Source: an uncultured Gammaproteobacteria bacterium (GTDB taxonomy: Bacteria; Patescibacteriota; Patescibacteriia; Magasanikbacterales; UBA922). From it: 64,000 bases of DNA. The notes under the pieces were generated by a model. It was given only the letters and a program-made list of their open reading frames with translations, ran no database searches and was not told the DNA's origin. Every line of letters starts with the position of its first letter. Position 1 is the stretch's first letter. Below, piece by piece: positions 975 to 52,971 of the stretch. The stretch is taken from assembly GCA_964522405.1 (NCBI GenBank), contig CAZFTR010000006.1, forward strand, positions 2,430 through 66,429, in the 5' to 3' direction. The position numbers and the translations under genes were made by a program.

Positions 975-1124
975 CAGAAAACAGTTAACAGTAGTGATTG
1001 GTGAGTGATGAATAGTGGCGGATGATAGGTAATTTCCCCTCCTTTCCAGGGAGTGGGTTAGGGGGTGGTTTCGCGCAAACAAAAAATCCAGCGCCTAGCT
1101 GGTTTTAAAATTTTCCTTTGGGCG

Positions 1125-1153
1125 GCGACAGAGATGTTCGATCTCTGTCGCCG
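1125..1153. terminator. Perfect 12-bp stem hairpin (ggcgacagagat/atctctgtcgcc) downstream of the island-1 ORF
   Basis: Seen directly; T/A-rich flanks on both strands. Confidence 0.4.
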
Positions 1154-1192
1154 CGCCAGTGTGAGTTTTGAGTGCGTTGTGTTGATGACCTT

Positions 1193-1486
1193 TCAGCCCG
1201 CCAATCCGATCAAGATCAGCAGGACCACGACGCCGACCCCGACACCGACGTAGGCCAGCAGCCGGCGACGGCGCTGACGCTCGAGTTGGATCCAGTCCAG
1301 CTCGGTCGGTGTGGGCAAGGCGCGGAAAGCGGCCTCGGCCTCGCGCGTGTCCCAGTGGACTTCGTGGGCGTTGTCGAAACGGCTGATCGCCCAACGCACG
1401 ATGCGGTAGCCAACGTAGATGGCCAACGCCAGTCCACCTGTCATTATGGTCAACACAACCAAGAAAATACAGCCACCTCTGCTCAC
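1193..1486 (-). CDS. Small membrane protein (2 predicted TM helices), GC-rich foreign ORF, GTG start
   Basis: 97 aa with hydrophobic N- and C-terminal segments; AAGGGGG Shine-Dalgarno 7 nt upstream of GTG; alternative overlapping frame 1095-1538 is less protein-like. Confidence 0.45.
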   Translation of the reverse strand: MSRGGCIFLVVLTIMTGGLALAIYVGYRIVRWAISRFDNAHEVHWDTREAEAAFRALPTPTELDWIQLERQRRRRLLAYVGVGVGVVVLLILIGLAG

Positions 1487-1786
1487 GTTTAGTCCCCCTT
1501 AACGTGTTCTTGTGGACAAAATCTAGATATTCATCCAAACTTAATCCACAAGAAAACAGTGTAGTATATCATAAAAAAAGCCTTTTGTCAAGGCAAAAAA
1601 GCCAAAATATTGCCAATTTTAGCCAAAAATGATACTATTTTAACAGTTTACTCTTTGGATTTTTTAAGAGTTACTAAATTAATTTTACAAGGTATTCGGA
1701 TTTACGGATAAATTCTGATAATTCGGATACACTTTATTTATTCGAATATCCGGATACAGCCACTAAATTACATAAAGGTTATTATT

Positions 1787-3079
1787 ATGAACATCCATAT
1801 AAAATCCGCATCCCAACATATCGACCAAGAAGTAACAATTCAAGGCTGGCTAAACAACAAACGTTCATCCGGTTCAATTGCTTTTCTTGAGCTTCGAGAT
1901 GGCTCTGGGTTTATCCAAGCCGTAGTTGCCAAAAATGCAATTGATGAAAAAGTTTGGCAGAGTGTTGAAAAAGCAACCCAAGAAACATCACTCTCAGTAA
2001 CCGGTAAAATCTCTAAACATCCCAAAAAAGAAAATGTTTTTGAACTTCAAGTTTCAGGAATTGAAATAGTTCATATTTCAAATGAGTATCCAATTACCAA
2101 AAAAGAACATGGTCCAGAATTTCTTCTTGATAATCGTCATCTCTGGCTTAGAAGTAAAAAACAATGGGCTGTTCTTCGTCTTCGCCATTTAGTAAAAACT
2201 GGATTTCAAGATTATTTTAATTCCAATGGCTATATTGAATTAGACACTCCAACTTTCACACCAAATGCTTGCGAAGGAACTACTGACTTATTTGAAGTAG
2301 ATTATTTTGGGACTACAGCTTACTTAACTCAGAACGGACAATTATATTTGGAAGCAATGGCCATGTCTTTTGGAAAAGTCTATGATCTTTGTCCAAATTT
2401 TCGTGCGGAAAAATCTAAAACCAGAAAACATCTTACAGAATTTTGGTCGCTCAATCCGGAAATTGCTTTTATAGATCATGAAGAAAGTTTGAAAATTCAA
2501 GAAGAGTGCACAAAGCATATGGTTAAATATGTTCTTGAGCATGGTAAACAGGAATTAGAACTGCTTGAAAGAGATATCTCAGAATTGCAAGCAATAGTAG
2601 ATGGTCAATTTATGCATTATGAATATGCAGACGCAATAGAAGAATTACAAAAACGCGGTTCCAAGATTCAGTATGGAGATGATCTCGGAGCAGAAGATGA
2701 AGTGCTTTTGACAGAAGATTCTCTAGTTCCTGTGATAGTGAAAAATTGGCCAAAGAAGATCAAACCTTTTTATATGAAAGATCATCCAGAAAAAGAAGGA
2801 GTGGTGTTAAATGCCGATGTCTTAGCTTCAAAAGGTTTTGGAGAAATAATCGGCGGATCTCAGCGTGAAGATGACTATGATCTACTAAGATCAAGAATAG
2901 AAAAAGAAGGTTTGGATTTAGAAGTATTTGAATGGTATCTAGATCTTCGAAAATATGGTTCAGTTCCTCATTGTGGCTTTGGAATTGGTATTGAGCGCAT
3001 GACTCGTTGGATGGCTGGTATACATCATATTCGGGAAACAATTCCATTTCCAAGAATGCTTAATCGCATCAAACCCTAA
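1787..3079 (+). CDS. asnS: Asparaginyl-tRNA synthetase (class IIb)
   Basis: 430 aa; motifs TQNGQLYLEA, FRAEKSKTRKHLTEFWSLNPEIAF and GGSQRE...HCGFGIGIER match AsnRS signatures. Confidence 0.8.
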   Translation: MNIHIKSASQHIDQEVTIQGWLNNKRSSGSIAFLELRDGSGFIQAVVAKNAIDEKVWQSVEKATQETSLSVTGKISKHPKKENVFELQVSGIEIVHISNEYPITKKEHGPEFLLDNRHLWLRSKKQWAVLRLRHLVKTGFQDYFNSNGYIELDTPTFTPNACEGTTDLFEVDYFGTTAYLTQNGQLYLEAMAMSFGKVYDLCPNFRAEKSKTRKHLTEFWSLNPEIAFIDHEESLKIQEECTKHMVKYVLEHGKQELELLERDISELQAIVDGQFMHYEYADAIEELQKRGSKIQYGDDLGAEDEVLLTEDSLVPVIVKNWPKKIKPFYMKDHPEKEGVVLNADVLASKGFGEIIGGSQREDDYDLLRSRIEKEGLDLEVFEWYLDLRKYGSVPHCGFGIGIERMTRWMAGIHHIRETIPFPRMLNRIKP

Positions 3080-3207
3080 GAAGCAGAATATACTACACGG
3101 ATTTTATAAAATGTGCTATAATATTTTCATAAGATAATTGGCAAAAAATACAATTTTTGCAGATCTTATGACTATGCAATTTTTGGCATAGATAATTTCT
3201 ATTAAGC

Positions 3208-6200
3208 ATGCGTGGGTCCACAAGACACACAATTATGCAGATAAAAACGGCAGTCAAAAAACTACTGCCTAGTAAGCTTAAACGTTATCAAAAAATAGCG
3301 CTTTTTGCGTTCGTTTTGCTTGGATCATTATTTTTTATTTCGAGTGTTGCTCAGGCAGGACAAGGTCCGGTTACTGATCTTATCAATGGTTTAATCAGTG
3401 CTGTATCTTGGATGCTAATTGTTACTGCTCGTATTTGTATTGGTTTTACTATATTTTTCCTAAGATTTTTTATAACTTTGGCCAGCTACAATGATTATAT
3501 AAATGCCGATATTGTTAAGCTGGGTTGGATCATGGTTCGTGATGTGGCCAATATGGGATTTGTAGTGGCTATGTTGGTTATTGCTTTTGCTACAATTCTT
3601 GGAATTGAGCAATATGAATTCAAAAAAGGTCTGGTAAAAGTCATACTGGCAGCAGTATTTATCAATTTCAGTAATTTGATTGCTCAGGTTTTTATTGACG
3701 CAGCACATGTTTTTACAATTACATTTTTAAACGCAATTTCAGTTACAGCAGGTGGTAATCTGATCACCATGTTCCAGCTCGATAAGATGCTGGATTTTGC
3801 TTCGAACAAGCCTCCTGGTGAGCTTAAGTTTGAAGTTCTGGGTGGTTCTATAGTTGCCTTTGTTTTTTCATTTATGGCTATGGCAGCTATGGGAGCCTAT
3901 GTTCTCGTTATGATGCTTCGTGTAGTTTTGCTTTGGGCTCTTATAATTTTGTCACCACTTGCTTATATTTTTGCAGTTTTACCGAAGACTGAGAAATATT
4001 CTCAAGAATGGTGGAAAGAATTTGGAGAGCAGGTCATGGTGGCGCCAATCATGGTATTTTTCCTATGGTTGTCTTTTGCAGCGCTCGGAAGCGGACAAGC
4101 GCTTGAACAAATCAATTCTTCCCCAGGTGCAGTACCACTGAAGATAAAAACCACAACTGACTATTCTGTATCTTTGACCAAAATTTCAACTTGGGAAAAC
4201 ATGGCCAATTTCTTGTTGGCTATAACTTTCATGTATATTGGTATTCAAAAAGTTGGTGAATCAGGCGCTTATGGAGGAAAAATTCTGCAAAATACCATGA
4301 GTACAGCCAAGAAGATCGGAGTTATTGCAAGTGGATATGCCACAGGAAGATGGTTGGTTGGCGGCGCAGCAGATGTCGGTAAAAAAGGTGTAAAAGAAGG
4401 TCTTTATCGACTTCCTCTTGTTGGTGGAGAAAAATGGGAAAGATATGCTAAGACTTTTGGTCATGGAATAAAAGGTATGTACATGGGTAAGGGTTTTGAA
4501 ATTACAGAAAAGGGTGAGCAGATACAGGGGGATTTGCGCGAAGAACAGACATTGGCAAAAGCATTAAAGGCTGGTGGTTCAGAAGCACTGGCTGGAGATA
4601 TAGAAAGATTAGAAGCACAGCAATCGGCAGCTAATATCAATTTAGAGGGTCAAAGAACAAACTTAGAAGCACAAGAGGCCGCTGGAGATATGGTGAATGC
4701 AGAGAAGACTAGAGCAGGTATAGCAGAAACAGAACGTGAGCTCGAAACCATAGAAGGTCATCTTGCAACAAATAAGAGGGTTAAGGAAAGAATTGACCGT
4801 GAAGGTTATACAGCGGATGATGTGGATGAAATTGAGCAAAATATCCAAGATCTGCAAAAACAATTAAAAGGTCAAGTTGGTGGTCGAGGCGGAGGAAGAG
4901 TGAGTGGCCTAATAGGTGCTATGGCTCGCGCCAATATCAAATCTCAAAAACGTCTCGCTAAAACTGAAAGACAGGCAGATGAAAGAAAACAATTACTCTG
5001 GAAAAGAACCGGTTCCCAGGCTGGTGGTTATTTGGTTGGAATGGGTCGTGTCGGTGATGTATACAGAGGAAGAGAAGCACAAGATCGTGTGGAGCGTGGC
5101 TGGCTAGCAGCTGAGTCTATGCGCTCCAAGGCCAAAGATGAAGAGTATGAAACCATGGGAAAAATGGAAGTTCTGGCCAAGCCACGTCTTAAATACAATG
5201 TAAATACTGGAGAGATTACTTATGAAGATACCAAAGGAACTGTAGCAGAGAGAATAGCAGAGCATGAAGTTGGACGTGATCAGTATCAAGATGCAATTAA
5301 GAAGCTGCAAGGTGAGGCAAGATTGAAAATTGTTGCTGATTTTGATGCTAATATGTCAAAATCTAATAATATTTCAGCAGAAATAGATAAATTGAAAAAA
5401 GAATTAGAAAATGTTGATAGTCCGGAATTTGCCAATAAAATTAAAAAGAGAATTGAACAGTTGGAGCAAGAGTTATCAGGTGTGGAGAGGGGAAGTGAGG
5501 AAGGACAGAAGTTGACTGATGAAATTAAAGTTTTTAAGGGTGTTAGAGATTCATTAGCTTTTGCTCAAGCTCAAAAAAATATACAGGATTTAGAAGCTCA
5601 AACCACTGCAGACGGTTTTGACCCAAGTTCTGAGAAGGGTCAGGAAATGTTGCGTGAATTGGAGCGTCTAAGAGAAGAATTTAGTGCAGAAGGTGGAGAA
5701 CAGAAAATACAAAAATGGGAAAGTTGGAAAACAGATCTAGACGATGGAATTCTTCATGAAGAGAGAAGAAGAGAGCAGAATAGAGAGATTACTGAACAAA
5801 AAAGAGAAGAATTGAAAACAGTTACCGATGAAGATGAACGAGCTAGGATTATAAAAATGATCGAAAGAGGAGAGGAGCATGACTCCAAATCTGCTTCAAT
5901 AATTACAGATTTAAAATCTCGACGATCATTACTTGATGATCCTGATAATTTAGATTTGGTTGAAAAAGAAATTGATGCTGCTCAAAGAAGATTCACAGAT
6001 TGGGTTCCAGCTGATGCTGAAGAGGCTGAGGCGTATAGAGCAGAGAGAACTGAGAAAGAGGCAGAGTTGGCGAGGTTGAGAGAAGAATACGCTCCTTTTG
6101 CGGAGGATGATGTTAGGGCTAAAGAATTACAAGAACAAATTTCTCAAAAAGAGGCTCAGTTAAATGGTATTGATATTAATAGCGATGAAGGAAGAGCTCG

Positions 6201-22458: not shown

Positions 22459-22862
22459 GTGGACCTCCTTTCTCCTTGTTTTGTCCACGCTTGTTCACGC
22501 CATCATCTGACCGTCTTCGAAGTTGAGGTCGGTCGCGAAGAGCGCGAAGAAGCAGGTGGCGAACATCATGCCTGTGGCCCAGCTGTCCGGAGTCAGCACC
22601 GAGGCGCAGAAACCGAAGGACAGCATCAAGTGCATCCAGCTCCTGTTCCTAACCAGGATCCAGGCCAGCATAATGCCGAGGAAGATGACCACGACGCTAA
22701 TCAGGATCTGTCCGATGGGCGGATTGCCGGTTGCTGCCACGATGAGCTCGGGCAGGATCAGGCCGATGAGGGCCATGACGAACGCTCCAGCCTGAGCGTT
22801 GGCATTATCAGAGTCCATTTTCCCTCCCAGGATCTCTCATTGACCCTTAAAGAACCCTAGCA
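22459..22862. other. High-GC island 2 (compositionally foreign segment)
   Basis: ~60% GC block between nrnA and smc; one ORF with strong RBS. Confidence 0.6.
22495..22818 (-). CDS. Small polytopic membrane protein (3-4 TM), GC-rich foreign ORF
   Basis: 107 aa hydrophobic; GGGAGGG Shine-Dalgarno 4-5 nt upstream of ATG on minus strand. Confidence 0.45.
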   Translation of the reverse strand: MDSDNANAQAGAFVMALIGLILPELIVAATGNPPIGQILISVVVIFLGIMLAWILVRNRSWMHLMLSFGFCASVLTPDSWATGMMFATCFFALFATDLNFEDGQMMA

Positions 22863-26431: not shown

Positions 26432-28069
26432 GTGGCGTGCTTGTATCCCCTTAGAGTTCATTTCACCGTAAAGAGTAGGGAGAGTTCCTTGAGAAGACAT
26501 CCAGGAAGGCGGAAAAGGGTAGTCGCCAAGTTCGGCGGCAGCTCGGTGGCTTCGGCAGTCATGCTGCTCACCATCTCCGAGATCGTAAAAGACCGGCGAC
26601 GGCGGCAGCGCGATTGGATCGTGGTCTCGGCTGCGGGCAAGCGCAGGCAGGTCAAAGGTGATGTAAAAGTCACTGATCTGCTGATCATCTTGCAGAACTT
26701 GATGGAGGACAGCACGCCCAATGACCACCAGGTCAAAGCGTCAGACTTCCAGACGGTCTGCAAGTGGGCGGGCGGCGAGAACAACCTGAGCGTGGACACA
26801 CTCTGGGAATTCATTGCCGAGCATCATCGCCAGATCGCCAGTCATGACGAGATCAACTTCGACATCGAGCCCATCCTCGGCAAGATCAAGAACGAGATCG
26901 TTACCAAGAAGGGTCGAGCATTCACTGTCAGCCGCGGCGAGTACCTTATGGCGTGCATCGTGGCTCAAGTGCTCGGTTACGAGTTCGTTGACGCGGCTCA
27001 GTTGGTCAAGTTCGACGTCGACCAGGCTGGCAACGTTCGGCTCAACGAGCACGAGACCAAGAAGCAGATCCAGGCTCACTGTCTGGGACACAAGTGCGTC
27101 ATCCCCGGCTTCTACGGCTCGAGCATCGAGAACCAGGATCAGATTCTGGTCTTCTCTCGTGGTGGTTCGGACATCTCGGGGGCGCTGATCGCTGCAGCAC
27201 TTTCGACCGACGTCTACGAGAACTGGACCGATGTGCCTGGCGTGGCCATGGCTGATCCTCGGTTCTTCGGAAAGAACGGCCGACGCTGGGTCAAGTGGAT
27301 CTCGGAGATCAGCTACCGAGAGCTTCGTGAAGCAGTTTACGCCCAGGTCCTCCACGAGGACGCCGTTCAGCCGGTTCGCAAGCACGGGATCCCCATCAAC
27401 ATCCGTTGCACTCTGCGTCCTGATCACCCCGGAACCATGGTGGTGCGAGATCGTCGACCTAACGAACGCCTGGTGCAGATCATCGCGGGCCGTAGTGGCT
27501 TCGTGAGTCTGTGCATTGGTCGGGACGAGAGCAACGACGAGATCGGCTACGCAGCTACCATCCTCGAGGTGCTCAAGGCTGAGGGGATTTGGTTCCACCA
27601 CGTGGCGACCAGTATCGATTCGATCAGTGTCATCATCCCTGCCGAGGCACTGAGCAATGGCAAGCTTCGGGACGCGATTCAGGCCATTCGAGATCAGGTC
27701 GAGCCTGACCGTCTGGTTCCGCTCGACGATTTGGCGCTGATCTGCCTGGTGGGCGACCAGGTGGGTGTCAACTCCAACAAGGTCCTGGCCTATGCTCACG
27801 CCGGGCTCTGGAACGCTGGCATCGAGGGGGTGCGTTTGGTCGAGATGGGGTCGTCTCAGCAGAACGTTATCGTCGGAGTCAACAAGTCTGAGCTCGAGGA
27901 CGCCATACGTGCTCTGCACGACGTGTTCGCCAGCTCTACGTTCTCGGGCAAGCTGCTGGCGCTTGGACGTGCCCGGCTTCGGCTGATGCGTCCGGGAACT
28001 GTCCTCACTCGAGCGGGCAACAAGCTCGGACGGTTGGTGCGAATGGCCAAGTTGCGCCGACAGGCCTGA
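26432..28069 (+). CDS. lysC: Aspartate kinase (amino-acid kinase domain + two ACT domains) with arginine-rich N- and C-terminal extensions
   Basis: 545 aa; KFGGSSV, WIVVSAAG, SRGGSDISGALIAAALSTDVYENWTDVPGVAMADPRF, C-terminal ACT repeats; true start may be TTG at 26489 preceded by AGGGAG. Confidence 0.7.
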   Translation: MACLYPLRVHFTVKSRESSLRRHPGRRKRVVAKFGGSSVASAVMLLTISEIVKDRRRRQRDWIVVSAAGKRRQVKGDVKVTDLLIILQNLMEDSTPNDHQVKASDFQTVCKWAGGENNLSVDTLWEFIAEHHRQIASHDEINFDIEPILGKIKNEIVTKKGRAFTVSRGEYLMACIVAQVLGYEFVDAAQLVKFDVDQAGNVRLNEHETKKQIQAHCLGHKCVIPGFYGSSIENQDQILVFSRGGSDISGALIAAALSTDVYENWTDVPGVAMADPRFFGKNGRRWVKWISEISYRELREAVYAQVLHEDAVQPVRKHGIPINIRCTLRPDHPGTMVVRDRRPNERLVQIIAGRSGFVSLCIGRDESNDEIGYAATILEVLKAEGIWFHHVATSIDSISVIIPAEALSNGKLRDAIQAIRDQVEPDRLVPLDDLALICLVGDQVGVNSNKVLAYAHAGLWNAGIEGVRLVEMGSSQQNVIVGVNKSELEDAIRALHDVFASSTFSGKLLALGRARLRLMRPGTVLTRAGNKLGRLVRMAKLRRQA

Positions 28070-28258: not shown

Positions 28259-28537
28259 ATGGCAGAAGAAGAAAAGAAGAAAGAGTTCGCAGTCGTCTCA
28301 GTGATGATCTGCACTGATCAGGTGGTCTTGTCGCTTCGTGATGGCGACTCATGCGGCGGGTTCCCGCCCTGCGACGCCAAGATTGCGAAGGGCGACTGGA
28401 TCGAGTCGGACGGCGTTGTCTCGTTCGAGGGTCAGGAGGTTCAGATCCAGGACGGACTCGAGGGGATCGCTGAGATCTACATCATCGGTGGAAGGGTGCG
28501 CCAGAACCGAGGTCGGATCACGACCATGGTTCCTTAG
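28259..28537 (+). CDS. Small hypothetical protein (92 aa), GC-rich foreign ORF
   Basis: GGAGG 7 nt upstream of ATG; no recognised family (contains SCGGFPPCD). Confidence 0.4.
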   Translation: MAEEEKKKEFAVVSVMICTDQVVLSLRDGDSCGGFPPCDAKIAKGDWIESDGVVSFEGQEVQIQDGLEGIAEIYIIGGRVRQNRGRITTMVP

Positions 28538-28627
28538 TCTGCATTGGCTACACCAACATCCACTCCGGGGCGACATTGCGCTCTCCTCGGGGTGGAAAGG
28601 AAAAATTTTATGCTATAATAAAAATAT

Positions 28628-29854
28628 ATGAATCAAGAATTTAAAATAGGTAATCATAAAGCAACAGATATAGTAGAAAAATTTGGAACGCCTACCTATG
28701 TTTATGATTTGCAGGTTGTCCGAGATAGGGTAGAGGACTTGCAAAAAAGAATTGGTGCTTATCCTAAAACTGAGTTTCTTTATGCTGTAAAAGCAAATTA
28801 TAATCCTTTTTTGGTGGGTGAGATTATAAATTTGGGTTGTGGAATTGATGCAGTTTCAGCAGAAGAGGTCTTGCTTGCTATTAAATGCGGAGCTGATAAA
28901 TCCAAAATCATGTTCACTGGAAACAATATGACAGATGAGGAGATGAGAAGTGTTCATGAGCTTGGAGTTTTACTAAATATTGGGTCACTTTCGCGTTTAG
29001 AGAAATACGGAAAGGAGTTTCCAGGAAGCAAGGTAAGCATTAGATTTAATCCAAATATTGGAATTGCCTCTCATGAAAGCAATATTACCGGTGGGCCTGA
29101 TTCGAAATTCGGTATCTCATTTAAAAAAGTAGAAGAAGTAAAAGAAATCGCAAACAAGTATAACTTGAACATAATTGGTGTTCATCAACATATTGGTTCT
29201 GGATGGTTACGTTTGCGCGAACCAATTCTTGCTCTTGATGTTATTCTGGAGATTGCTGAGCAATTTTCAAATCTTGAATTTGTCGATGTTGGTGGTGGTT
29301 TTGGTATTCCCTATAAGCCAGAGCAAAATCGTCTAGACATTGGGCTTTTGGGAGAACAAATCAATAAACGCTTTTCAGCGTTTTGTCAGAAATATGGTCG
29401 CGAAATCACACTTAGGTTTGAGCCTGGTAGATATGTAGTGGCTGAATCAGGTCATTTACTAACTAGAGTAAATACAATAAAAGAATCAATTAGCAGAAAA
29501 ATCATTGTTGGAACAGATACCGGAATGCATCATCTGGTGCGAGTAGCCATGTACGATTCATATCATCCCATAGTTAATGCCAGTAATCTGGATGGTATGA
29601 TGCAAGAGTATGATGTCACTGGAAATATTTGTGAATGTGCTGATTTTTTTGCAAGAAACCGAATGCTTCCTGAAATCCGAGAGGGGGATCTTCTTAGTAT
29701 AGATATTGCCGGAGCTTATGGAATGGCCATGGCATATAATTATCAGTTTAGAGGGTTGCCAGCAGAAATAATGATAGATGGAGATCAATTGGTTGAGATC
29801 AGAAAAAGAGAAACTTTTGATGACCTATTTTCTAGATACAATTATGAAACTTGA
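28628..29854 (+). CDS. lysA: Diaminopimelate decarboxylase (PLP-dependent, fold-type III)
   Basis: 408 aa; YAVKANYNP PLP-lysine motif, GGGFGIPY, Orn/DAP decarboxylase architecture. Confidence 0.85.
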   Translation: MNQEFKIGNHKATDIVEKFGTPTYVYDLQVVRDRVEDLQKRIGAYPKTEFLYAVKANYNPFLVGEIINLGCGIDAVSAEEVLLAIKCGADKSKIMFTGNNMTDEEMRSVHELGVLLNIGSLSRLEKYGKEFPGSKVSIRFNPNIGIASHESNITGGPDSKFGISFKKVEEVKEIANKYNLNIIGVHQHIGSGWLRLREPILALDVILEIAEQFSNLEFVDVGGGFGIPYKPEQNRLDIGLLGEQINKRFSAFCQKYGREITLRFEPGRYVVAESGHLLTRVNTIKESISRKIIVGTDTGMHHLVRVAMYDSYHPIVNASNLDGMMQEYDVTGNICECADFFARNRMLPEIREGDLLSIDIAGAYGMAMAYNYQFRGLPAEIMIDGDQLVEIRKRETFDDLFSRYNYET

Positions 29855-48424: not shown

Positions 48425-48877
48425 TCAGCGGTTGAGTTTGGGTTTCTCGGGGCGGATCTCGATTGTCCAGCGTGGTCCCAGCCAGGACCAGCGCTTGACC
48501 GCCAGGTAGTCGTGGCTGTCGATCCTGCGATCCTTGGACGAGTCCCTGACGTGGATGATCTTGATCACTGTGCGTCCGAATCGGTCGACCCGGACGTAGA
48601 GACGCCAGAAGGGTTCCAGTTCGGCGCTGTCTGAGGCGTTCTTGATCATCTCCGCGGCAGCTTCGATGCTGACGCTGACATTGCTGTCGGGCGCGATGAT
48701 CAGTACGCGCTCTGAGGGGTCGGTGCCGGCGGCGTAGCCGACGATCTTGGAGTCGCTGAACTCCGTGAACGTCGCCACCCCAACCTTGCGGTTGAGAAAC
48801 GCCACGATTCTTCTCAGTCTCGCCTCCAGTCTCTCTGTTGTTTCGCTTCTCTTGGGGTTATCGAACATTGACCTCAT
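48425..48877 (-). CDS. Hypothetical protein (150 aa), GC-rich foreign ORF
   Basis: Coding-like GC3-rich codon usage; GGAGGA immediately upstream of ATG; no recognised family. Confidence 0.45.
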   Translation of the reverse strand: MRSMFDNPKRSETTERLEARLRRIVAFLNRKVGVATFTEFSDSKIVGYAAGTDPSERVLIIAPDSNVSVSIEAAAEMIKNASDSAELEPFWRLYVRVDRFGRTVIKIIHVRDSSKDRRIDSHDYLAVKRWSWLGPRWTIEIRPEKPKLNR

Positions 48878-51640: not shown

Positions 51641-52200
51641 GCGTCCTCCTTTTGACGCCTCCTTGGTTTTGGGTAAAAGAGCCTGGGATTGGATGTTCAC
51701 CAGAACGGCGAGCAATTGCGGCAGGGCACCGCGGTGGTGGGTTAGTCGTTGTCGAACTCTCCGTCGATGGGTTCGTGCGGGTAGGCGCCTCCCTCCAAGA
51801 GCTCTTTCTTCAGGGTGAGGAGGGTCTGCTCGCCGAGCTCGCCGTCGGCGATGAGGTCGGTGTCCTCCAGTCCCTCGGAGAGGATGAGCATGATCAGGTA
51901 GGCCTGGATCTGCTTGAGCGTCGGCATCCCGTCGGGCAGACTGACCTCGTCGTCGTACATGCGCTGCACGGTGGCGCGGTCGATCTGGCCGGTGACCTCG
52001 AGGCCGTCCGTGGCCTCCTGGTACTGGCGCAGCGCCAGCTCGGTCTGCTCACCGAGCTCGCCGTCGGCGATGAGGTTCTCGGTGTTGTGTCCCGCGACGA
52101 TCAGGAAGGCCTGAACGCCTTTGATTCTTTTGTTGCTGAGCTCGATAGTCATGGTCCGTGCAATCTCCGTAGTTGTTCCGTCCGATTCTGAATCGAACTT
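51641..52200. other. High-GC island 5 (compositionally foreign segment)
   Basis: ~62% GC block between tsaD and the tRNA region. Confidence 0.6.
51742..52152 (-). CDS. Protein with two tandem peptidoglycan-binding (PG_binding_1-like) repeats, GC-rich foreign ORF
   Basis: 136 aa; repeated IADGELGEQTELALRQYQ / IADGELGEQTLLTLKKEL motifs matching the DG-FG--T--AV--FQ PG-binding consensus. Confidence 0.5.
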   Translation of the reverse strand: MTIELSNKRIKGVQAFLIVAGHNTENLIADGELGEQTELALRQYQEATDGLEVTGQIDRATVQRMYDDEVSLPDGMPTLKQIQAYLIMLILSEGLEDTDLIADGELGEQTLLTLKKELLEGGAYPHEPIDGEFDND

Positions 52201-52280
52201 TAAGACTGCTTTATTATATATAGAATTTATTATTTGTCAAGGTTTTTAGTTTGGTTTTATAAAATATATTTATAAAAAAA

Positions 52281-52306
52281 CAACAGAACCAAAAATGGTT
52301 CTGTTG
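52281..52306 (-). terminator. Intrinsic terminator (caacagaacc-aaaaat-ggttctgttg, U-run on minus strand)
   Basis: 10-bp perfect stem; minus-strand T7 follows; terminates element X. Confidence 0.5.
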
Positions 52307-52340
52307 CAAGGAATAAACGGTAAACGTATGTCATACCGTT

Positions 52341-52470
52341 TGGTAGCCCCAAGGGGAATCTCAGTCGCTACTTCGTGCTCCTGGGAAAACCTTCTGGTTT
52401 TCCCAACCTTTCCTCAGCATGTAAGGGGGCTCTGCCCCCTTACCATCCCCCAGTTCGATTCCCTCACCAA
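52341..52470 (-). ncRNA. tRNA-like structured element X ending in a copy of the tRNA-Glu 3' end plus CCA
   Basis: 3' end ...attccccttggggctacca duplicates 18 nt of the tRNA-Glu T-arm/acceptor; two internal hairpins (gtaaggggg-cagag-cccccttac and gggaaaacc-agaa-ggttttccc); own downstream terminator; no intact cloverleaf. Confidence 0.3.
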
Positions 52471-52475
52471 TCTAC

Positions 52476-52513
52476 AATAAAAGACAACCAACTTTCAGTC
52501 GGTTGTCTTTTAT
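52476..52513. terminator. Bidirectional intrinsic terminator after tRNA-Glu (aaagacaacc ... ggttgtcttt with A/T runs)
   Basis: Seen directly. Confidence 0.55.
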
Positions 52514-52515
52514 TG

Positions 52516-52587
52516 TAGCCCCAAGGGGAATCGAACCCCTGTTTTCTGGATGAAAACCAGATGTCCTAACCACTAGACGATGGGGCC
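52516..52587 (-). tRNA. tRNA-Glu (anticodon UUC)
   Basis: Minus-strand cloverleaf GGCCCCATCGTCTAGTGGTTAGGACATCTGGTTTTCATCCAGAAAACAGGGGTTCGATTCCCCTTGGGGCTA; anticodon loop TTTTCAT. Confidence 0.85.
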
Positions 52588-52760: not shown

Positions 52761-52789
52761 TTGACTAAAAACACAAAAACAAGTAATAT
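52761..52789 (+). promoter_or_regulatory. Near-consensus promoter (TTGACT-17-TAATAT) and ~170-nt structured leader upstream of rplJ (possible L10 autoregulatory leader)
   Basis: Hexamers seen directly; leader contains hairpin ctccgat-gtatat-atcggag; leader function inferred from conserved rplJL regulation. Confidence 0.35.
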
Positions 52790-52971
52790 ATAGCTCACAT
52801 ACCGCAGACAGTAGCTCTCCGATGTATATCGGAGTTAAATACGCTACCGAGGTGACAAATACTTTCTTGACTGAGAGTATACAAAGGTCGCGCCTAAACG
52901 TTTCTGTGGTTGAATAAACCACTTTTTTGTTTCTATTTTTTTAGAAACACAATATAACTTAATAATAAGTT

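Follow-up and report, generated by a model that had tools for sequence, protein, structure and literature searches.

An apparently undescribed noncoding cassette behind tRNA genes of Patescibacteria, with ends that match the tRNA 3′ end

Our analyses concerned a 64,000-nucleotide stretch of contig CAZFTR010000006.1, from an uncultured bacterium of the Magasanikbacterales (hereafter the window, meaning this whole stretch), and in particular element X, a minus-strand segment that lies behind a tRNA-Glu gene and carries at its end a second copy of that gene's 3′ terminus. On balance, we favor the reading that X is an apparently undescribed, noncoding cassette of Patescibacteria, ∼125 nt in length, which has been inserted behind tRNA genes and whose ends are made from the tRNA 3′ end. 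A first-pass annotation of the window had offered three explanations for the repeated tRNA end, namely that it is the attachment-site (att) scar of an integrative element, that X is a degenerate tRNA paralogue, or that X is a tRNA-derived small RNA. The data described below show that the repeat marks an inserted cassette, as opposed to a scar left behind by an element since lost or the remains of a tRNA; how X spreads and what it does, we infer. A search of the literature revealed no description of X.

The direct repeat is the 18-mer GTAGCCCCAAGGGGAATC, which is present as exact copies at positions 52343-52360 and 52515-52532, as had been annotated. The first-pass annotation had cautioned that the repeat would be uninformative if the 18-mer were common elsewhere; within the 64-kb window there are only these two copies, no third being found with up to two mismatches allowed, and there were no matches in 100 dinucleotide-preserving shuffles (chance expectation, 0). 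ARAGORN identified a tRNA-Glu(UUC) gene at this site and the Rfam tRNA model matched it, bearing out the assignment of the 52515-52532 copy to the tRNA-Glu 3′ end. The gene encodes C74 and not the full CCA. Behind it, and between the repeat copies, is the terminator-like hairpin and T-run that had been attributed to tRNA-Glu, the foot of which takes in the last 4 nt of the tRNA (CUAC/GUAG). The gap between the copies is 154 bp, corresponding to a unit of 172 bp when the repeat is included, and neither an open reading frame (ORF) with recombinase similarity nor an integrase remnant was found within the 154 bp. The features of the locus, given in the order in which the minus strand is read, are as follows.

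52515-52587, minus strand: tRNA-Glu(UUC) gene (ARAGORN; Rfam RF00005, 68.1 bits)
52515-52532, minus strand: repeat copy 1, tRNA nt 57-74, GAUUCCCCUUGGGGCUAC, an exact 18-mer
52472-52518, minus strand: spacer hairpin and T-run, terminator-like, of tRNA-Glu; an inverted repeat with 22-nt arms that are 95% complementary
52341-52469, minus strand: element X as a whole (closing stem P1, three hairpins, joiner, tRNA-like tail and CCA), matched by model R1
52453-52463, minus strand: P1 5′ strand, GGGAAUC and GAAC, copied in inverted form from the tRNA T-loop and T-stem 3′ strand, GUUCGAUUCCC
52421-52443, minus strand: hairpin 1, 10 bp with a 3-nt loop; an inverted repeat with 10/10 pairs
52408-52418, minus strand: purine-rich joiner GCUGAGGAAAG, kept in the first four genomes and seen before the pattern search
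52382-52405, minus strand: hairpin 2, UGGGAAAACC AGAA GGUUUUCCCA; an inverted repeat with 10/10 pairs
52364-52381, minus strand: hairpin 3 region, GGAGC ACGAAGUA GCGAC; from alignments, the pairing being a reading by eye
52341-52364, minus strand: CUGA, followed by the P1 3′ strand and the tail; contains repeat copy 2 (52343-52360)
52280-52307, minus strand: terminator-like hairpin and T7 run 3′ of X, 12 pairs

X had been described as a minus-strand element of ∼130 nt that ends in acceptor-like sequence plus CCA, contains two strong hairpins and has its own terminator, and each part of this description held up on closer inspection: both hairpins have all of their 10 pairs, and the hairpin and T7 run at 52280-52307 follow the tail. 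Covariance model R1, which we built from the family described below, matched X at 52344-52469 on the minus strand over its full length, with 85.3 bits and an E value of 3.4e-22. The 3′ part of X consists, in order, of GAUU, the T-stem 3′ strand CCCCU, the acceptor 3′ strand UGGGGCU, A73 and CCA; its end thus reads ...GAUUCCCCUUGGGGCUACCA, with the CCA at 52343-52341. The tail is identical to tRNA-Glu at 15/15 positions. Two further pieces of tRNA-Glu, both inverted, are embedded in X and had been overlooked in the first-pass annotation. The first, GTTCGATTCCC at 52453-52463, derives from the T-loop and T-stem and constitutes the P1 5′ strand, with an inverted match to tRNA-Glu 52526-52536 at 11/11 positions, while the second, TCTGGTTTTC at 52393-52402, corresponds to part of the anticodon arm. 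In P1, GGGAAUC (52463-52457) pairs with GAUUCCC (52360-52354), after which comes the tail CUUGGGGCUACCA. The 135-nt minus-strand RNA of X folds at −54.4 kcal/mol (z = −3.6); the plus strand folds as well as the minus strand, and both beat shuffles. An extra hairpin, AAACGGUA ... UACCGUUU, is located at 52313-52340 on the minus strand, between the X tail and the X terminator, and is not seen in other members.

X does not correspond to a known RNA among those searched. It had been said to lack a canonical cloverleaf and, indeed, ARAGORN called no tRNA in X with introns permitted or thresholds lowered to 80% (-i, -ps and -ps80), finding only the tRNA-Glu at 52515-52587, and the Rfam tRNA model did not match X at E values up to 10. 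No transfer-messenger RNA (tmRNA) was detected by ARAGORN in the window or at any of the X loci, nor was there an Rfam tmRNA match. The Rfam covariance search that had been proposed likewise matched no family to X in Rfam 15 (51-54 kb of the window at E values up to 10, all of the window at gathering thresholds, and 15 loci with family members at E values up to 1). Subthreshold Rfam matches near X (psRNA14, Esr41 and mir families) were rejected as chance hits on hairpins, and matches to sX4 in member loci were caused by tRNA. Within the window region and the 15 loci, Rfam gave no match to T-box riboswitches or to self-cleaving ribozymes (hammerhead, twister, twister-sister, hatchet, pistol and HDV-like); what follows X is a terminator and unrelated genes. 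An adjacent tnpB or reverse transcriptase gene, as expected of an omega RNA or a retron, was not found, there being no recurrent partner gene between −5 and +7 kb of X across all loci. Finally, GAGGAAAG(UCC) presumably resembles conserved region I of RNase P, and GGAUUCGAAC is what we take to be a likeness of the tmRNA 5′ end; Rfam matched neither RNase P nor tmRNA here.

Homologs of X were found behind tRNA-Glu in three related Magasanikbacteria genomes (loci L007, L008 and L013), in each case on the tRNA strand, after the tRNA hairpin and ahead of another hairpin with a T-run. A pattern scan of metagenomes, in which the pattern comprised the conserved joiner and hairpin 2 with GGAAAG and the hairpin 2 center fixed, produced 81 X loci. 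The members lie ∼40 to 50 nt behind tRNA genes and always on the tRNA strand; at nearly all loci with a detectable tRNA, its 3′ end is ∼60 to 125 nt upstream of the core, mostly 90 to 105 nt. The tRNAs that carry X represent 30 anticodons and 17 amino acids, to which a diverged copy adds Val. Model R1 was built from 27 members, its 30 pairs being those of P1 and of hairpins 1 and 2; searched against the collected loci, it matched 81 copies. A search of viral contigs with hairpin 2 alone returned 7 hits, none of them X-like, and phage and plasmid collections contained no match to X. Two candidate copies were discarded: a third 18-mer in L013 is a duplicate flanking an assembly gap, and what looked like a second X where the L089 recombinase gene ends is an antisense tRNA-Gly.

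In each of the four Magasanikbacteria genomes, the X tail equals the tRNA-Glu end of its own genome, despite the fact that the four acceptor 3′ strands differ (UUGGGGCUAC, GUGGCGCUAC, UACGGGCUGC and GUAGCGGUAC). Across 51 nonredundant pairs, compared over the last 15 nt of the tRNA call, the tail was identical to the neighboring tRNA in 26 and had at most two mismatches in 37; when compared with tRNAs of other amino acids, the tails showed a median of 7 mismatches, and two or fewer in just 0.04% of comparisons. Thus, the tail match extends across the family, and the 18-mer of the window is a defining family property rather than a local peculiarity. Specifically, the 3′ end of family members reads (G)UGAGAU and then continues as a direct tRNA copy from T-loop nt 57-60 to nt 74, spanning the T-stem 3′ strand, the acceptor 3′ strand and the discriminator. 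The 5′ strand follows the family-wide pattern ...NNNNNAAUCGAAC; in it, the reverse complement of the T-stem 3′ strand precedes AAUCGAAC, which is the T-loop in reverse complement. In L098, L106, L149, L154 and L157, the complementarity extends into the acceptor strand. The two arms pair to form P1, which reproduces the T-stem, closes a four-way junction and leaves the acceptor 3′ strand and discriminator single-stranded (plus the CCA in the window). At G·U pairs of the tRNA T-stem, the base on the X 5′ strand is the Watson-Crick complement of the 3′ strand in at least 8 cases and that of the tRNA itself in 1 to 2. The 5′ arm, then, is genuinely inverted tRNA sequence and does not repeat the T-stem 5′ strand. 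In the window, L007, L013, L091 and L107, the tail has a CCA that is absent from the neighboring tRNA gene, which amounts to 5 of ∼25 cases with ∼1.5 expected. The tail CCA raised the idea of a retrotransposed mature tRNA end, which was rejected because many tails copy the downstream flank of the gene, indicating duplication at the DNA level. The X of the window has all the parts that define the family: a T-stem-derived P1, hairpin 1, the UGAGGAAAG joiner, hairpins 2 and 3, and a tail equal to its tRNA.

These family data refute the proposal that X is a degenerate tRNA-Glu paralogue or pseudogene, which we effectively discount. It would account for the 3′ 18 to 20 nt that equal tRNA-Glu and for the short matches to the anticodon arm and T-loop, but the internal matches are inverted, the same core is shared behind at least 17 tRNA specificities, and the ARAGORN relaxed and intron modes and the Rfam tRNA model, as noted, find no cloverleaf. 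Only the closing stem and the tail are tRNA-derived, and the core is unrelated to tRNA. The earlier notion of a tRNA-derived small RNA applies to the two ends of X and fails for the remainder.

The core consists of hairpin 1 (8 to 10 bp, mostly with GNRA-type loops), the joiner UGCUGAGGAAAG, hairpin 2 (10 to 11 bp, with an NGAA loop) and hairpin 3, the length of which differs among family members. Of the cells in the model-based alignment, 91.5% are paired, and both sides have changed in 24 of the 30 pairs, values that were reached by 0/500 shuffles; sliding the pair partners by 1 to 3 columns lowers the pairing to 38 to 59%. The unfitted seed alignment gave a similar picture, with 89.8% of cells paired and a covariation score reached by 0/500 shuffles. 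Of the modeled pairs in hairpin 1, 7/8 covary across the family. In hairpin 2, the outer pairs covary, and the inner pairs do so in diverged copies, where A-U to G-C compensations are found. RNAalifold applied to a plain MAFFT alignment recovered hairpin 2 alone, the full structure having come from the hand-defined structure and the model-based alignment. We suspect, judging from the sequence, tandem G·A pairs at the foot of P1 (GAAC versus GUGA) and in hairpin 3. That the core is so strongly conserved suggests a product, most likely RNA, that does something.

Comparison with relatives indicated that X was inserted. The best relatives of the RplJ protein assign the window to Candidatus Magasanikbacteria, within the Candidate Phyla Radiation (Patescibacteria); the RplJ of the window itself was absent from the records searched. 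We examined 80 rplJ loci, 33 of which have a tRNA-Glu nearby (the window neighborhood itself contains rplJ, rplL, tsaD, dnaE and a near-threshold L10 leader). An empty site had been suggested as something to look for and, in 29 of the 33 tRNA-Glu loci, there is nothing X-like behind the tRNA. In L005, L022 and L032, tRNA-Glu runs straight into tsaD; at this position in the window, X and a 62% GC gene are inserted. A covariance-model search of the 77 other rplJ loci (557 kb) found no X. The first-pass annotation had also raised the case that relatives might carry X as a conserved, normal tRNA; they carry either X or nothing.

The relationships among cores do not follow those among tRNAs. The window and L008 copies (both Glu) share a hairpin 1 type with L135 (His) and L137 (Met), and the L007 and L013 cores (Glu) fall into other groups, so that the four tRNA-Glu copies represent three core clades. 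On contig L152, a Lys-X and an Arg-X have nearly identical cores and arms that fit their own tRNAs, and L158 contains a mosaic X pair. The repeat has a constant left boundary, in the T-loop, and a variable right one, which usually falls at nt 74 but runs past the tRNA by 8 nt in L131, 12 nt in L118, 17 nt in L150, 38 nt in L132 and 57 nt in L133. Perfect repeats of such nonfunctional flank point to recent duplication at the DNA level. In the L100 tandem, tRNA-Glu is followed by an X with a matching tail and then by a second X with a decayed tail, an order which suggests that the copy nearest the tRNA is the newest.

These observations bear on an alternative in which X is an old gene for a small RNA of the host that works with its own tRNA. 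Its closing stem and tail would be required to resemble the T-stem and acceptor 3′ end of the cognate tRNA, the arms would coevolve with the tRNA under selection, and gene conversion would homogenize the cores within a genome. Such an RNA could serve RNase P, RNase Z or the CCA-adding enzyme as a substrate or decoy, could work in the manner of an RNase P external guide sequence, or could be a sponge for tRNA 3′-end factors. A strongly conserved and covarying core is what this explanation predicts, as are tails that track the tRNA in four Magasanikbacteria genomes with differing acceptor stems and, in five loci, a tail CCA where the gene has none; gene conversion would fit the similarity of cores within a contig, and the layout of L113, L163 and L122 (described below) suits cotranscription and processing. 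Set against these points are the patchy distribution of X, which is present at 4/34 tRNA-Glu loci and behind 1/3 of the tRNAs in the window, the presence of terminator-like hairpins between tRNA and X, the three core clades among tRNA-Glu copies and the decayed tail of the distal L100 copy. Moreover, perfect repeats that run 17 to 57 nt into nonfunctional flank reflect recent duplication and not selection. We therefore regard a host small RNA as unlikely.

Inserted DNA at a tRNA gene is also what the att-scar proposal called for, and in this respect it stands: the tRNA 3′ end is directly repeated family-wide, relatives show empty sites (29/33), and an X tail can be reused as an attachment site by a recombinase-bearing element (L116/L109). 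Other expectations of a scar are not borne out. The repeats enclose neither an integrase (or remnant) nor kilobase-scale foreign DNA, the interval in the window being only 154 bp, no recombinase recurs near X, and the content is not unrelated from site to site; instead, a conserved, covarying element lies between the repeats at no fewer than 80 loci and behind at least 17 specificities. A distal att site was also sought past the GC-rich gene that follows X, and no 9-mer of the tRNA-Glu end was present in the right place with up to one mismatch.

Elements with protein-coding cargo appear to use tRNA 3′ ends in these genomes. The L116/L127 array comprises tRNA-Ser, a spacer and X, 6.1 kb of cargo, 8 nt of tRNA end with spacer and X, 4.6 kb of cargo, and a third unit, the repeated unit being 203 nt and 100% identical. 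The first cargo encodes a large serine recombinase, Rep, APH, M23 and LigT-like proteins, and the recombinase reading frame runs into the X tail (L116), while the second cargo contains AbiEii, GNAT-ASCH and PRiA4_ORF3 genes (toxin-antitoxin). A related recombinase gene in L089 likewise lies directly against a genuine tRNA-Gly. Together, these arrangements suggest that recombinase elements use tRNA 3′ ends and that X tails can stand in as copies of them. In L166, 800 bp of cargo lies between tRNA-Gln and a CTCGGAAC-spacer-X unit, integrated at the last 8 nt of the tRNA. Comparison of L130 with L111 (99.95% identical) revealed a 908-bp cassette exactly at the tRNA-Ser(UGA) 3′ end with a ∼4-nt repeat (L130:100-1007); it encodes a 237-residue Cys-rich orphan protein, for which a guess of HNH nuclease was dropped after no Pfam hit was obtained. 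In L015 (579-1025), a GIY-YIG nuclease gene is inserted in tRNA-Glu, with a 38-nt direct repeat of the tRNA-Glu 3′ half starting in the anticodon loop, and L014 provides the empty site; the GIY-YIG ORF crosses an assembly gap, where the sequence was joined by hand. Smaller, noncoding occupants were also seen: L096 has, at ∼4070-4200 on the minus strand, a cassette X′ with a different core of ∼110 nt between two tRNA-end repeats; a single-hairpin element of 53 nt with the same tRNA-end-repeat design lies behind tRNA-Ser in L111 and L161; and L135 has, behind tRNA-Arg(UCU), a partial tRNA copy with a 30-nt two-hairpin insert placed exactly in the T-loop. Thus, the tRNA 3′ flank in these genomes accommodates cassettes in general, among which X is the commonest noncoding one. 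In L161, a tRNA-Ser-like 3′ end, GGUACCGUGAGUUCGAAUCUCACCCUCACCGC, was also noted at ∼3000-3140 after a long GC-rich structured stretch; it was not called by ARAGORN and may be an unusual or disrupted tRNA.

The att cores of tRNA-integrating islands are usually 16 to 18 nt long and run from the T-loop to the 3′ end. The X repeat has this size and place, which raises the alternative that the 172-bp unit is a miniature integrative cassette moved conservatively by integrases encoded elsewhere, with the tRNA end as attB, the X tail as attP and the 18-mer as the core. The identical 203-nt units with recombinase cargo in L116/L127, the L166 cargo at the final 8 nt of its tRNA, the 4-nt repeat that distinguishes L130 from L111, and the empty sites of relatives all agree with such a cassette. 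Crossover into a different tRNA, however, would create a chimeric, dead tRNA, yet both arms match across tRNAs; a conservative att-by-att crossover cannot yield this outcome, since it would replace the recipient 3′ end and leave the arms mismatched. Further, the right repeat boundary lies anywhere from 0 to 57 nt past the tRNA, an inverted 5′ arm is unexpected for an att site, and most copies, that of the window included, have no integrase in or beside them. A conservatively integrated cassette thus appears quite unlikely to us.

The inserted cassette that we favor nevertheless has close counterparts in genomic islands directed to the 3′ ends of tRNA genes, tandem arrays like tycheposons (10.1101/2020.12.28.424599) among them. 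Like them, X lies behind a tRNA, has a direct repeat that starts in the T-loop and shows empty sites, and, as in tycheposon arrays, the units of L116, L127 and L100 each regenerate the tRNA-end core. Unlike them, the X unit is 154 to 172 bp, noncoding and free of an integrase, its repeat length is variable, and it contains an inverted copy of the target; moreover, a single core lineage is found behind many tRNAs with both arms rematched.

The strand on which X acts was assigned from its position and flanks. X is always on the tRNA strand, and it lies inside or against tRNA transcription units in L113, L122 and L163 (in L113 and L163, the core is directly between two tRNAs, and in L122, X abuts the tRNA). 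A hairpin with a T-run follows X in 30/71 loci in the sense orientation, as compared to 14/71 in the antisense orientation and 1/71 in shuffled sequence. On these grounds, we take the tRNA strand to be the sense strand. Upstream of X, a hairpin passes a crude terminator test in 34/71 sense cases versus 10/71 antisense.

Given these findings, one account of X seems plausible to us, if short of probable: that it spreads by synthesis-dependent repair or template switching, and yields a read-through RNA with a tRNA-like end and a core that binds a factor or is catalytic. New copies would arise by repair synthesis or template switching at T-loop DNA, which is near-identical in all tRNAs. An existing X would serve as the template, with the inverted T-loop microhomologies at both of its ends (AAUCGAAC ... 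GAGAUU) as entry points; the 3′ end of the recipient bottom strand would prime on X, copy the core and return to the recipient. Such an event would leave the tRNA intact, with the left arm of the new copy inverted, its right arm direct and a stretch of target of variable length duplicated. The cassette would then be transcribed by read-through, or directly where X abuts the tRNA, and the tRNA-like end of the structured RNA could be handled by the tRNA 3′-end machinery. The conserved core may bind a factor encoded elsewhere or may itself be catalytic, in either case serving the persistence or spread of the element.

Several points weigh against this account and against the cassette reading on which it is built. 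The invariance of GGAAAG and hairpin 2 and the uniformity of the family are partly artifacts of the scan pattern, the 81 metagenome contigs were counted without taxonomic assignment, and the model-based alignment used for covariation (A5) was fitted to the model. Wobble counts in the stems (84 for G·U plus U·G versus 63 for A·C plus C·A) settle neither the strand nor the choice between RNA and single-stranded DNA. No conserved promoter was found upstream of X, position-specific counts showing a T-run only, and this, together with the upstream terminator-like hairpin in most copies, suggests that transcription may be weak. All-against-all clustering of the ORFs within −5 to +7 kb of X, at all loci, revealed no recurrent protein family. 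The template-switch step is purely inferred, and purely selfish spread at the DNA level leaves the conservation of the core unexplained.

A bolder possibility, which we consider somewhat unlikely, is that X is a protein-less, self-retargeting mobile element of structured RNA, with arms that are retemplated at each tRNA and a core that is a ribozyme or a handle for an enzyme encoded elsewhere. If so, each copy would be an exact mimic, and potentially a dual-strand guide, of its current target, and would provide secondary landing pads for mobile DNA.

A guide function has, in fact, some precedents. Like the omega RNA of TnpB, the bridge RNA of IS110 and tigRNA, X combines a conserved scaffold with variable, target-matched segments, and, like omega RNA, its 3′ segment equals the DNA that flanks the element. 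By analogy with the dual-strand recognition of bridge RNA or of the tigRNA of TIGR-Tas, and with the flank-derived guide of omega RNA, X could be a guide RNA for a nuclease, recombinase or transposase encoded elsewhere, its two arms pairing with both strands of the T-arm and acceptor DNA of the tRNA gene. The suspected tandem G·A (kink-turn-like) motifs at the P1 foot and in hairpin 3 could be added to the matched arms in favor of such a guide, as could the occurrence of TIGR-Tas systems, which have been reported among Candidate Phyla Radiation bacteria (PMC12045711). In contrast to these systems, X has no adjacent effector, and no effector gene recurs in cis; its arms are complementary to each other and sequestered in P1; and neither its sequence nor its structure matches theirs, X being unlike a 36-nt tigRNA array or any guide family in Rfam. 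The adjacent intact tRNA gene would, in addition, be a permanent self-target. A guide RNA is thus very improbable.

Returning to the inserted cassette, its tRNA-like end has parallels among other RNAs. Like the tRNA-like domain of tmRNA, YrlA, mascRNA/MALAT1 and viral 3′ tRNA-like structures, X has a terminal helix and an NCCA-like tail that imitate tRNA, and, by analogy, this end could recruit tRNA-processing enzymes. Unlike those RNAs, X lacks a T-loop and a D-arm mimic and, usually, a paired acceptor stem as well, and it mimics one specific neighboring tRNA rather than tRNAs in general. Its layout of a stem, the 7-nt acceptor 3′ strand, the discriminator and CCA also resembles an RNase P external guide sequence, the difference being that the sole obvious target of X is the 5′ strand of its cognate tRNA. 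Plant dicistronic tRNA-snoRNA genes, in which small RNAs linked to a tRNA are released by RNase Z or RNase P, offer a further comparison (cited in PMC12045711, refs 66-67). X is similarly located directly downstream on the same strand, and the layout of L113, L122 and L163 would permit release by tRNA end processing. It differs in that a terminator-like hairpin stands between the tRNA and most copies of X, and in that X duplicates the tRNA end.

Between X and tsaD in the window lies the 62% GC gene mentioned above, one of several GC-rich genes of the stretch.

51742-52240, minus strand: PG_binding_1 gene including its promoter, 136 residues, 62% GC, between X and tsaD (ORF, 51742-52152)
1095-1538, minus strand: GC-rich ORF
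22459-22860, plus strand: GC-rich ORF
26432-28069, plus strand: GC-rich ORF
28338-28631, plus strand: GC-rich ORF
48425-48877, minus strand: GC-rich ORF
51742-52152, minus strand: GC-rich ORF, that of the PG_binding_1 gene

The promoter of the PG_binding_1 gene (52240-52213, minus strand) matches the sigma-70 consensus at 12/12 positions (TTGACA, 16 nt, TATAAT). The gene is probably separate cargo at the same hotspot, its membership in X being uncertain; GC-rich orphan ORFs also follow X in L007 and L013. In its 5′ untranslated region, at 52185-52204 on the minus strand, is a T-loop-like palindrome, AGUUCGAUUCAGAAUCGGAC, with a 10-nt exact inverted match to the X 5′ arm; it may be a leftover of an older tRNA-end cassette or may be due to chance. 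The six ORFs are isolated and have 56 to 62% GC in a genome of ∼35% GC, and some have strong promoters of their own, the ORF at 1095-1538 being preceded by a similar TTGACA...TATACT promoter. Only two have Pfam matches, namely AA_kinase plus ACT (26432-28069) and PG_binding_1 (51742-52152). Comparable GC-rich orphan ORFs adjoin tRNA-Glu or X in L007, L008, L013 and L096, and the whole looks like frequent uptake of foreign or unusual cassettes. Elsewhere in the neighborhood, the L10 leader (RF00557) upstream of rplJ, at 52784-52937 on the plus strand, scored 41.9 bits against a gathering threshold of 44 (E = 1e-4), and rplJ-rplL is followed by a convergent 759-residue gene and not by rpoB.

We see X as akin to tRNA-targeted insertion elements, and there is a real chance that the mechanism behind it is new. 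X offers an explanation for tRNA 3′ ends that are duplicated a few hundred bases apart and that would otherwise be read as scars of prophages or islands, and its tails can serve as additional attachment sites. The flanks of tRNA genes in these tiny genomes are apparently busy, with X, mini-hairpin elements, a GIY-YIG gene, orphan-gene cassettes, a recombinase element and GC-rich orphans. That one conserved core gains arms matched to each tRNA poses a question of template-directed insertion and, should an enzyme be involved, a possible principle of programmable targeting. Model R1 can now be used to annotate the X family. If confirmed, X would give the Candidate Phyla Radiation, bacteria in which noncoding RNA is almost unexplored, a structured RNA family that is both widespread and abundant.

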